From: a bacterium
GTDB lineage: Bacteria; Patescibacteriota; Minisyncoccia; Phycocordibacterales; UBA5272
Direction of reading: 5' to 3'
DNA: 29,237 bases
Assembly (NCBI GenBank): GCA_043728155.1
Contig: JAYTMX010000014.1
Span: 1 to 29,237, forward strand
Under the pieces are notes generated by a model. It searched no databases and was not told the origin of the DNA. It saw nothing but the letters and a program-made list of their open reading frames with translations. This document shows, piece after piece, positions 10,856-26,357 of this stretch. How positions within the stretch are numbered: the first letter of the stretch is position 1; every line of letters starts with the position of its first letter. A program made the translations under genes and the position numbers.

Positions 10856-11287
10856 ATGTCTACAACAAAACCAAAGAATATTAAATGTCCAGTACTAACT
10901 TTATATAATGTAAAGTCAGAGCTTAAAAAAGCTGGAGTCAGAATCTATCTTCGCAATGGTACAAGTCTAGCAAGTTTAGATCCTGGCGTGTTTAATGCTA
11001 AGACTCAATATGCAAAATTAGATCAAAATTGTAAATCAGAAGACATTGCAGTTAGTCTTAAAAATATTAGCCAATCATCTGCAGGCCTATTAAGTTTAGC
11101 TAGGGTATTAATTGAAGATCCAAGCATTTTCGATAATATCTCCCTTTATATTCAAAATAAAGAAGCTAATCCAAAAGGTGATTTCACCTATGCGTTCGCG
11201 CGTCGCTGGAATGGAGGACGCATTCTGCGTGTTGATCGTGATGGAGGCAGGATCGCTGGTAATATTTTTTTGGTTAACCCTATTTGA
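10856..11287 (+). CDS. Hypothetical protein, possible remote DGR-type target
   Basis: 143 aa with SD AGGAG; GC-rich 3' end (AFARRWNGGRILRVDRDGGRIAGNIFLV); followed by a hairpin at about 11322-11343 and a T-run. Confidence 0.7.
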   Translation: MSTTKPKNIKCPVLTLYNVKSELKKAGVRIYLRNGTSLASLDPGVFNAKTQYAKLDQNCKSEDIAVSLKNISQSSAGLLSLARVLIEDPSIFDNISLYIQNKEANPKGDFTYAFARRWNGGRILRVDRDGGRIAGNIFLVNPI

Positions 11288-11454
11288 TTTATTTTTTTAT
11301 TTGGTGATATTTGGTGACTGGCCCCGAGCATATGCGAGGGGCTTTTCTTTTTGTATTTATTTGTTTTCATTTTTCTATATTTATATTTTTAAAAATGTTA
11401 TAATTAATCTAAAAAATTATTTTTGCATATAGCAAAAATATAAATTATAACATT

Positions 11455-23467: not shown

Positions 23468-23500
23468 AATAGTGTTTATTTACGAGACTATTTTATGCTA

Positions 23501-23529
23501 TTGACAAAAATGTAAAAAGAGTATATACT
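23501..23529 (+). promoter_or_regulatory. Promoter of DGR target gene
   Basis: TTGACA 23501-23506, 17 nt, TATACT 23524-23529. Confidence 0.7.
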
Positions 23530-23588
23530 AATTAAGTTAGTTCAAGCGCACATTCGTACGCACTAACGCTCTTTAAAGGAAACACGTC

Positions 23589-24194
23589 ATGAATGACAAG
23601 TTTACAATGACAACAGGACAGGCCCATGAGTTCGCTATGGCTTGTAGTAGAAATGGAGTTAGCGCTGCTAATATCAAGTTTCTCTCAAAAGGGGAAAATA
23701 TTAAAAAAGCCCTAGCTTTTCTTGGAAGAAAAAGTGAGGTCGCTGATTTTACAACCGCCACCTACTGGCAAATTGATACCTATCGCAAGCTCTGGGTTTC
23801 GTCAGAGTTCACGCAGCGGATTACTACTGCGTACCCAGACCCAATTCTACATCGTGGTCTTGAAGGAGTAACCCACTTTCCATCCAAATCTAGCGATAAC
23901 AAAAACATTGCTGAGATGGGTGGTATGGAGGAAGTGCGCAAGCACGCCTTCACTCCAGATCAGATCGCTAATTTGCGTGACAAGCAAATGAGTGGCGAAG
24001 AGGGTCAACTCCTCACTAACGGTTACTGGAATTTGTTCTACGTAATCGGAAAGGGTGGGGTACTTTTTGTGGTCGGCTTGTACTGGGATCGTGACAACGG
24101 CGAGTGGGACACGCACGCGTGGCCTTTGGACGAGCATGGCGACTGGCGCTCTGACCGTCGTGTCTTTCGCAATACTTTGGTTTTGGAGACTTAA
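23589..24194 (+). CDS. DGR target (variable) protein with C-terminal VR
   Basis: 201 aa; 113 nt near the 3' end match the TR; SD AAAGGA; no signal peptide seen. Confidence 0.93.
   Translation: MNDKFTMTTGQAHEFAMACSRNGVSAANIKFLSKGENIKKALAFLGRKSEVADFTTATYWQIDTYRKLWVSSEFTQRITTAYPDPILHRGLEGVTHFPSKSSDNKNIAEMGGMEEVRKHAFTPDQIANLRDKQMSGEEGQLLTNGYWNLFYVIGKGGVLFVVGLYWDRDNGEWDTHAWPLDEHGDWRSDRRVFRNTLVLET
24060..24172 (+). repeat. DGR variable repeat (VR)
   Basis: 100/113 identical to the TR; all 13 mismatches are at TR adenines. Confidence 0.97.
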
Positions 24195-24520
24195 CCCTTC
24201 TGAACCAAATCCTTAGGACTCTAACCTTGGTACTTTGTACTTGGTTCGGGTCCTTTTTTAATATATAATATTATTGATTTCGTAATAAAGTGCGATCAAG
24301 GTTTCACTTTCGAAATCAAGAAGAGTACGAGTCAGTATAATTATGAATACGTTTGTAATTAGAGTGCAAATATTCTTCTTTATATAAAAAATATAAAAAT
24401 TGGTGCCATGCCTTGGTAGATTAGATTGGTAGTTTACTGCCAACAAGATCTCAAATAATATTCAATCCAGATTAGAGTAATCTTAAATGGATGGTGGTAC
24501 AGATGAGATGTGGCACAAAA

Positions 24521-24633
24521 GTACTTTTTGTGGTCAGCTTGAACTGGAATCATGACAACGGCAAGTGGAACACGAACGCGTGGCCTTTGGACGAGAATGA
24601 CGACTGGAACTCTGACAATCGTGTCTTTCGCAA
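24521..24633 (+). ncRNA. DGR template repeat (TR)
   Basis: AAY-rich copy of the VR (30 adenines): GTC AGC TTG AAC TGG AAT CAT GAC AAC GGC AAG TGG AAC ACG AAC GCG TGG... Confidence 0.97.
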
Positions 24634-24637
24634 CTTT

Positions 24638-25056
24638 TTAATTTCTCTCCAGATTTTTATCTGGAGAGTTTTGTTTCTCAACCTGACCCAGCCAACCACC
24701 CAACATCTTACCTATTTCATCCAATGGTACACTAAGTTTTTCATATTTATTATTATCTATTGATTTACTTTCCCACAGTACCATGAGCAATATCTTAAGT
24801 GTATCTAATTTCCTTATCGCAGTTTTTAAATAAATGACCTTGTCTAACTTTTGCACAAAAGAAGCGCTAGCGCACATTTCAATCAACTCTACAAATAAAT
24901 TATCTATTTTTAAAGCAAGAGTATACCTGTGTGTTCTCGGCACAACTCCGTATATGCCATACCAAAAAGTATAAACATTTTTAATTTTAATTAAAATAGG
25001 TACGAGTTTCCCTTGCAAAATTCCTGGGGGGGGGGGGTAATATTATGTGTATGCAT
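24638..25056 (-). CDS. avd: DGR accessory variability determinant (four-helix bundle), out of frame with ATG 25056 at a C12 run
   Basis: HRYTL and DEIGKMLGGW motifs. The ORF from TTG 25018 is open. ATG 25056 joins it (MHTHNITPPP(P)GILQGKL...) only with 10 or 13 C. Confidence 0.85.
24645..24668. other. Perfect 10-bp hairpin 3' of TR
   Basis: CTCTCCAGAT-TTTT-ATCTGGAGAG; lies inside the last codons of antisense avd. Confidence 0.8.
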
Positions 25057-26052
25057 AGTTTTTCTAAAAATTATTTTTGTTTATCTTACAATAATATCAT
25101 ATCCACAGAAAATCTTTTAGAAGCCTGGAATATATTTAAAAAAGGTAAGAAAAATAAATTAGATATAATAGAATTTGAATTTAACTTAATGAATAATATT
25201 TTAGATTTACACAATAGTCTTAAAAATAAAGATTACAAACATGGGAGTTATGAACATTTTAAAGTTAATGATCCAAAGCTGCGTGATATACACAAAGCGA
25301 GTGTAAGGGATAGATTATTACATCATGCTATCTATAATATATTGTAGCCACTTTACGATAAAAAGTTTATCGCTGATTCGTATAGCTGTAGAAATAACAA
25401 AGGCACATATAAAGCTATAAAAAGATTTAAAAAATTTACAAGATGTGTAAGTAATAATTATACTACTCAGTGTTACATATTAAAATGCGATATTAAAAAG
25501 TTTTTTGCGAGTGTTGATCATAATATATTAATTAAGATATTAGAAAAGAAAATAGGAGATAGAGATATTTTAGAGTTATTAATTAATATTATTTCTAGTT
25601 TCGGCCCTGGATTGCCGCTCGGTAATTTAACTTCGCAGTTACTAGTAAATATCTACATGAATGAATTTGATCAATATATAAAACATAACTTAAAAGTAAA
25701 ATACTATATCAGATACGCTGATGACTTTGTTTTTGTTTCAGATGGTAAAAACTACTTAGAGTTAGTGCGTCAAAAATGCGAAGCATTTTTGACGCTAAAC
25801 TTAAAACTAAGTTTACATCCAAAGAAATGCTTTATCAGAACTATATATTCTGGAATAGACTTTTTAGGGTGGGTGCATTTTCCAAATCATAGAGTGCTGA
25901 GAAATACAACAAAGAGGAGAATATTTAGAAGAGTGAGTGAAGAAAACCTAGCTAGTTATTTAGGGTTATTAAAACACGGTAATGCACACAACATAGGTGA
26001 AGAGATTTTAGAAAAGGTAACTTGTAAAAAGTGTGAGAATATGTTAATATAG
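25045..26052 (+). pseudogene. DGR reverse transcriptase with a single in-frame TAG (25345-25347)
   Basis: One frame throughout: RDRLLHHAI, *PLYDKKFIADSYSCR, KCDIKKFF, GLPLGNLTSQ, YIRYADDF, GIDFLG; 335 codons. Confidence 0.93.
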
Positions 26053-26060
26053 TAACACTT

Positions 26061-26357
26061 ATGTTAAAAATTAGATTACAAAGAATAGGAAGAAAAAACG
26101 ACCCACATTTTAGAATGGTTGTAACTCCGCACCACTTAAAACCAAAAACTACACAGTACACAGAAATATTAGGTACTTACAATGTAAAAGCCGGTATTTT
26201 TGAATGTAAAGGTGACCGTGTTAAGCATTGGATGTCAGTTGGCGCTCAGGTCAGTCCAACAGTACACAATTTATTAATTAATAAAGGTGTAATCGAAGGA
26301 AAGAAAATCAACGTATTACCAAGAAAGTCTCCAGTTAAGAAAGAAGAGAAAAAATAA
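26061..26357 (+). CDS. rpsP: 30S ribosomal protein S16
   Basis: MLKIRLQRIGRKNDPHFRMVV...EILGTYN...GAQVSPTV. Confidence 0.96.
   Translation: MLKIRLQRIGRKNDPHFRMVVTPHHLKPKTTQYTEILGTYNVKAGIFECKGDRVKHWMSVGAQVSPTVHNLLINKGVIEGKKINVLPRKSPVKKEEKK

Follow-up and report, generated by a model that had tools for sequence, protein, structure and literature searches.

The window, that is, the whole 29,237-nucleotide stretch analysed here, is one contig of a genome bin of 579 kb (72 contigs, 77% complete) and has a GC content of 33%. It contains a diversity-generating retroelement (DGR), which is mutagenic and consists of the following parts:

23589..24194, plus strand: DGR target gene, an ORF of 201 aa without a Pfam family, with the variable region at its 3' end
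24060..24172, plus strand: variable region (VR), 113 nt, a direct repeat of the template region with 13 mismatches
24521..24633, plus strand: template region (TR), 113 nt with 30 adenines, of which 13 are substituted in the VR
24638..25018, minus strand: avd (accessory variability determinant), 126 aa, TTG start, an unbroken ORF divergent from the reverse transcriptase gene
24645..24668, plus strand: terminator-like hairpin with a 10-pair stem and a T-rich tail, directly 3' of the TR and just past the stop codon of avd
25026..25037: homopolymer G12 (C12 on the avd strand), separating the divergent starts of avd and the reverse transcriptase gene
25045..26052, plus strand: frame of the DGR reverse transcriptase (RT), 335 codons, with YADD and an LGNLTSQ motif

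The RT belongs to the DGR type, as had been claimed in the earlier note on this DNA. The product of the 335 codons that precede the terminal stop, translated with an X at the one internal stop, matches the Pfam family RVT_1 with 83.9 bits over profile positions 8-203 of 205. Among solved structures the best match is 8ub7_A (328 aa, E 3.9e-42), which is named 'Reverse transcriptase' and which we take to be the Bordetella enzyme; RTs of group II introns and retrons match the RT of the window more weakly (E 1e-16 or worse). Moreover, an SQ motif as present in LGNLTSQ is typical of DGR RTs. The description of the frame given in the earlier note agrees with the translation as well: ORFs 25045-25347 and 25612-26052 of the list are in the same frame, and no stop interrupts the 88 intervening codons (25348-25611), which encode the motifs DSYSCR and CDIKKFF. 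The single internal stop, the TAG at codon 101 (HHAIYNIL-stop-PLYD), is the sole lesion of the RT in this contig.

The TR and the VR had been called pristine, and this can be confirmed. The TR lies 461 nt downstream of the VR, and all 13 mismatches between the two are found opposite adenines of the TR, which would occur by chance with a probability of about 3e-9 if the positions were random. In the target ORF, all 13 changes affect codon positions 1 or 2. The last 15 nt of VR and TR do not differ at all, and the sequences diverge after 24172 and 24633, respectively. The target protein has no Pfam match even at E values up to 10, and its 39 homologues (40 matches including the protein itself), most of them 154-230 aa long, are all unnamed or hypothetical; judged by these matches, it seems to represent a small target family with a fold that is unassigned by Pfam. 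The hairpin stands 3' of the TR, not of the VR. It could end the transcripts of both the TR and avd, or it could form part of the RNA that is used by the RT.

Upstream of the element, the window encodes an RNB/S1 protein of the RNase R kind, and the RT gene is followed by the genes for the ribosomal protein S16 (rpsP), a KhpA-type KH protein and a tRNA m1G methyltransferase. Given these neighbours, the element is chromosomal. The closest homologues of the RT and of Avd bear names of the Patescibacteria/CPR group in the public sources. Elsewhere in the window, the ORFs 10856-11287 and 11112-11432 overlap by 176 nt in different frames; neither of them has a Pfam match, and they may represent a frameshifted gene or a chance ORF. 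The former is the sole TGA-ended ORF among the 28 long ORFs that were tallied.

The order of the parts, i. e. the target with the VR, the TR (24521-24633, plus strand), the reverse-strand avd (24638-25018) and the RT gene (from 25045, plus strand), corresponds to architecture B3, TR-(avd)-RT, which accounts for 90% of the 126 DGRs of a CPR set (Wu et al. 2018, Nucleic Acids Res 46:11, PMC5758913). As far as the main text of that study describes the B3 elements, the element of the window is likewise chromosomal and located beside ribosomal-protein genes (here, rpsP after the RT gene), its target is likewise without a recognisable domain, and there is no architectural difference; what is found here in addition is the in-frame TAG in the RT gene, on this contig alone. 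With a DGR-type RT, a TR/VR pair with differences confined to adenines, a VR in the 3' end of the target gene, and avd, this is a complete, ordinary chromosomal B3-type DGR in a small-genome, low-GC bacterium.

The prototype of these elements is the DGR of the Bordetella phage BPP-1 (mtd-avd-TR-brt). Like the prototype, the element studied here encodes an RT with a YADD motif and a bAvd-type Avd, its TR/VR differences are restricted to adenines, and the VR is found at the 3' end of the target gene. Unlike in BPP-1, avd is located on the opposite strand between the TR and the RT gene, the element resides in a chromosome rather than a phage, and the 201-aa target is without a Pfam family.

Four public runs of one study (X1 to X4) contain this DNA or part of it, in the form of contigs, which do not report allele frequencies. 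Their comparison with the window draws attention to three features of the RT gene, two of which are private, i. e. present on the contig of the window only:

25332..25347: 16-nt quasi-palindrome that contains both private changes, with 7 of 8 pairs formed in the window
25336..25338, plus strand: AAT (Asn98), the second private change, 9 nt upstream of the change that creates the TAG; AAG in X1 and X2 and AAA in X3 (all Lys)
25345..25347, plus strand: in-frame TAG, private; TAC (Tyr) in all contigs of these runs that cover the site

The X1 contig (1650 nt, depth 13.9) spans positions 25026-26200, and the X2 contig (6036 nt, depth 15.9) spans positions 23500-25376; each of them differs from the window at the same two positions, 25338 (T>G) and 25347 (G>C). 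X3 represents a related strain with 25 differences in 484 nt, and it has A at position 25338 and C at position 25347. Expressed as depth, C at 25347 accounts for 13.9 of 13.9 in X1, 15.9 of 15.9 in X2, and 6.99 of 6.99 in X3. Tyr at the stop position and Lys three codons upstream are thus found in all three runs that cover the site, and the TAG haplotype is absent from all covering contigs of these three runs (X4 has no cover there). The two private changes, 9 nt apart, are the only difference in 2.7 kb. The protein records give the same picture: A public protein of 335 aa (ENA; two contigs, the longest of 43,007 bases) is identical to the RT of the window at 333 of 335 residues and differs from it only by Lys instead of Asn98 and by Tyr at the position of the stop (Tyr101). 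The truncated product of 100 aa is on record from a single contig, the one of 29,237 bases studied here. An uninterrupted RT frame, absent from the window due to the TAG at codon 101, is therefore present in the contigs of X1, X2, and X3 and in the public protein.

The haplotypes seem to differ by little else, since the identical 126-aa Avd and the identical 201-aa target, and hence the same VR allele, are each found on two contigs, and the longest of these has the length of the longest contig with the intact RT (43,007 bases). The VR of the X1 and X2 contigs shows no difference from that of the window, and the cluster of the target protein has a single member; both observations have to be read in the light of the fact that contigs collapse variants. 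Of the words sampled from the window, a share of 0.98 is present in X1 and 0.97 in X2. As the 31-mers over the two private sites make up only 40 of 2671 words (1.5%), these shares are compatible with the absence of just the private words. The X1, X2, and ENA contigs may share reads with the genome bin, in which case they are different assemblies rather than independent samples. Still, other assemblies, even if made from the same reads, are a relevant test of a consensus base.

The earlier note had proposed a recent inactivation of the element that froze the current VR allele, and it had named a sense codon in the reads as the observation that would speak against this idea. At the level of contigs, such a sense codon is what we find, with TAC in three of the three covering runs and an intact 335-aa protein on two other contigs. 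Accordingly, the claim that the element as such was inactivated and its VR frozen is not supported, and of the claim that the inactivation was recent one part survives: The lesion would be very recent if it is real. The alternatives that had been offered, a mixed population or a sequencing error, agree better with these findings. We conclude that the TAG most likely does not represent the element as it exists in the population sampled, and that the element is most likely a normal, functional one that is intact in most cells. The architecture is that of the known CPR-type DGRs, and the unusual part is the combination of the TAG and Asn98 on this contig only.

The two affected residues are highly conserved among the relatives. 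We considered 92 loci, i. e. the window, 11 loci of related genomes and 80 metagenome contigs, and for 79 of them enough upstream DNA was available. In all of these 79 loci, avd is divergent from and adjacent to the RT gene. Internal stops in the RT are absent from all 91 related loci; this count leaves out a match in genome G018 with one flagged TAA and a 64-aa fragment on G011:C6 with two flagged stops. Four locus alignments contain a stop, and in each case it is the natural end, located within the last dozen query residues (residues 324-325 of 335 in L070, L071, and L093, and near residue 331 in L005). We also looked for recurrent stops in relatives: The stop of G011 turned out to be a natural end that was read through, and residues 15-332 of G027 are free of stops. 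Among the 120 best homologues, the column of the stop holds Tyr in 117 sequences, Cys in two, and His in one, and in the column of Asn98, 114 of the 120 have either Arg (95) or Lys (19), while Asn is found in none. The codon at the site of the TAG is TAT or TAC in the 12 other loci in which it was located by a simple pattern (L010 was unmatched by this pattern). The metagenome scan for the same locus returned relatives only, with 66% identity at best, and so provided no further view of the site. The window haplotype thus combines two unusual states within four codons.

How can two private changes so close to each other be explained? The explanation that we favour, with a confidence that is evenly balanced, is a real rare or sister haplotype that was followed by the assembly of the genome bin while most cells have an intact RT. 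According to this idea, the two linked base changes at 25338 and 25347 would mark a haplotype that just happened to be assembled in the bin. The majority of the cells would possess the intact RT with Lys98 and Tyr101, and the cells of the TAG haplotype would make a 100-aa fragment devoid of the catalytic motifs and would thus be unable to diversify their VR. In the lineage as a whole, RT, Avd, TR, and VR would remain functional. We prefer a real haplotype over an error because short-read assemblers use words that are present in the reads, and because the two changes are found on one path; two wrong bases on one path would be unusual for such an assembler at a depth of about 14-16x. The sequences directly show the TAG of the window, the sense codon of the other assemblies, the intact avd body, and the adenine-specific TR/VR differences; the presence of the TAG haplotype in cells and its frequency are inferred. 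Several observations weigh against a real haplotype: Its existence in cells hinges on the window, as the three covering runs provide no contig with the TAG, and contigs drop rare variants and show neither presence nor frequency. In addition, two changes within 10 nt and none else in 2.7 kb would fit a cluster of errors equally well.

Alternatively, the private bases may result from sequencing, library preparation or contig polishing. If so, no cell would carry the TAG, and the element would simply be intact. We regard this as a serious possibility, to which we assign somewhat less than an even chance. It is in good agreement with the restriction of the TAG and of the truncated product to this one contig, with the close spacing of the two changes in an otherwise identical stretch of 2.7 kb, and with the replacement of two conserved residues by states (Asn and stop) that are found in none of the 120 homologues. 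Moreover, each change completes a pair in the 16-nt quasi-palindrome, and such structures are rare: 16-mers with at least 7 of 8 pairs are found at 33 of 29,222 positions in the window and at 2 of 993 in the RT. If the bases of the other assemblies (G at position 25338, C at position 25347) are put in, two pairs, 25332/25347 and 25338/25341, would be lost and 5 of 8 left. This pattern points to a process that is linked to the palindrome, either a template-switch mutation in the cell or an artefact of preparation or assembly at the inverted repeat. Preparation artefacts are known to occur at inverted repeats, and for this reason the location of both changes in one quasi-palindrome may also count against the real haplotype.

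Quasi-palindrome template-switch mutations are known in bacteria from work with E. coli. The case described here is similar in that two clustered changes each perfect an imperfect inverted repeat. It is different in that the changes are located in opposite arms and that the mismatch 25335/25344 between them is uncorrected; by our reasoning, a single contiguous template switch would therefore not account for both changes. We also considered a near-identical second copy of the element as a source of mixed words. However, blastn searches of the 72 contigs with the RT, the TR, avd, and the target detected, in addition to the window itself, only paralogues of 66-67% identity and a 43-nt RT-like fragment on contig C44. 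None of the 12-, 14-, or 16-mers that span both private sites is present elsewhere in the genome, and neither of the paralogous RTs has these bases at the site. A mixing of words from a second copy in these contigs can thus be rejected, which speaks against the artefact.

The earlier note had counted a frameshift in avd as a second, independent lesion that keeps the element off. Taken together with the nonsense codon, this led to the idea of a recent switch-off of the whole element, with the RT inactivated by the TAG, avd by a frameshift at the G run, and the VR allele frozen. A part of the observation can be confirmed: On the minus strand, there is an ATG at 25056 upstream of the C12 run, and the frame from this ATG, which reads MHTHNITPPPQEF..., is out of phase with the body of avd across the run. 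By our reasoning, a G run of 13 or 10 would join this ATG to the avd body. Some Avd homologues, as called by their sources, do start upstream of a Pro run (e. g. MHTPNNITPPPANVQGKLVPIL), and Pro runs of at least two residues are present in the first 40 residues of 52 out of 120 Avd homologues, many of which start at a Met upstream of the run. The body of avd is not broken, however. Its ORF of 126 aa is whole, the product matches the Pfam family bAvd with 55.9 bits (cut-off 40) over profile positions 6-105 of 107, and it is 89% identical over residues 1-126 to the Avd of the same-genus relative L005. Moreover, an ATG in phase upstream of the G run is found in just 17 of 55 loci, which is about the one-third expected by chance, and it is out of phase in the other 38 (the 55 loci, among them the window's own, are those with a G run that passed a first, stricter filter). 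Since the in-phase state is thus no more frequent than chance, an out-of-phase ATG is no lesion in itself; it is the commoner state among the relatives. Finally, G12 is found unchanged, without any gap, in the contigs of X1 and X2, whose RT is intact. The phase mismatch upstream of avd would, from what can be read in these genes, not count as a second lesion.

A switch-off of the whole element is therefore improbable in our view. It draws on the TAG of the window itself, on the phase of the upstream ATG and the upstream starts of homologous Avd proteins, on the lack of any VR variant with a single-member target cluster, and on the possibility that the true source sample of the bin is not among the four runs. 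Against it stand the TAC in all covering contigs of the runs and the intact 335-aa protein on record, in addition to the whole avd body, the chance-like phase of the upstream ATG, and the unchanged G12 next to an intact RT.

The G run itself is a recurrent feature of the junction between avd and the RT gene. A run of at least six G residues is present at this place in 64 of the 79 loci with enough upstream DNA, the window included; the runs comprise 6 to 14 residues, most often 9, and the window is the sole locus with G12. A contig of X3 with a low depth of 2.7 has a run that is longer by one G. The run is flanked by palindromic hexamers, TTGCAA (25013-25018), which holds the TTG start of avd, and ATGCAT (25051-25056), which provides an ATG on both strands. 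A scan for consensus sigma-70-like promoters with spacers of 16-18 nt detected none on the plus strand near the RT gene. By eye, TTGCAA (25013-25018) and TAATAT (25038-25043) are 19 nt apart, and a TANNNT hexamer follows the G run in 18 of 64 loci. The G tract may act as a switch by slipped-strand events, belong to a promoter spacer, or serve as an RNA element. The main text of Wu et al. (PMC5758913) does not mention a G run at this junction (the terms homopolymer, poly-G, and G-rich have no occurrence each), and nothing relevant on a control of DGRs by homopolymers or phase variation was found in the literature searched. In the whole genome (579 kb, 33% GC), ten runs of at least eight G or C are found, e. 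g. at C14:20572-20580, C20:3615-3623, C42:233-240, and C42:3258-3265; two of them are located at the 5' ends of DGR RT genes (C14 and C51). Several others are, by eye, located between -35-like and -10-like hexamers, as in TTTACA-18-TATAAT on C20. G/C runs may thus be a general promoter-spacer feature of this organism.

Could the TAG be tolerated? Readthrough, decoding of the TAG as an amino acid, or cover in trans by another RT would each keep the element active in spite of the stop. The search for a second DGR RT that the earlier note had called for was successful, and the bin encodes two more such enzymes without internal stops. The RT on C51 (positions 73-1068) is complete with 331 aa and 52% identical to that of the window; a separate G10 run belongs to it, and the genes that follow encode L32 and a NusB-family protein. 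The RT on C58 (C58:1-999), whose 5' end is missing because the contig stops there, carries YTDD as a variant of the YADD motif, is 48% identical, and adjoins a gene for a CAP-family secreted protein. Both have Tyr in the stop column. In both cases the contig ends directly 5' of the RT, and blastn of the 72 contigs of the bin detected no additional avd or TR. The two enzymes could in principle provide the missing activity, and a suppressor tRNA might be missed in a genome that is 77% complete. In the Bordetella phage system, the RT acts together with the RNA and the Avd of the same element, and an identity of just 48-52% speaks against an exchange; cover in trans is also not needed here. Stop codon usage argues against the two other routes: The 28 tallied long ORFs end with TAA (20), TAG (7), or TGA (1), and the seven TAG-ended ORFs include the RT gene with its own terminal stop. 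Among 32 tRNAs detected by Aragorn in the 77% complete genome, none has a CUA, UUA, or UCA anticodon. Another genetic code can be dismissed on the basis of these results, and TAG is a normal stop in this genome. Considering also that no relative has a stop at this place, tolerance of the TAG is very improbable.

It is tempting to speculate that populations are polymorphic for ON and OFF states of the element. The combination of the TAG and Asn98 would then be an RT-null allele that arose in one step at the quasi-palindrome on a shared VR allele, and the G6-G14 tract would provide a second, reversible control by slipped-strand events. We consider this scenario unlikely. In the literature searched, by title or by the start of the abstract, no nonsense allele (premature stop) of a DGR RT is reported.

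The results have a practical consequence for the interpretation of metagenome-derived genes: In a genome bin, one nonsense codon should not be taken for gene decay until the position has been compared with other assemblies, or with reads, of this DNA, and in the present case it was the inspection of the other assemblies that overturned the decay reading. The apparent double inactivation largely dissolves, and what is left is a standard CPR-type DGR, so that the biological consequence is small. If the TAG haplotype is real, it would illustrate, on a small scale, that a mutagenic retroelement can vary by loss of function within a natural population.
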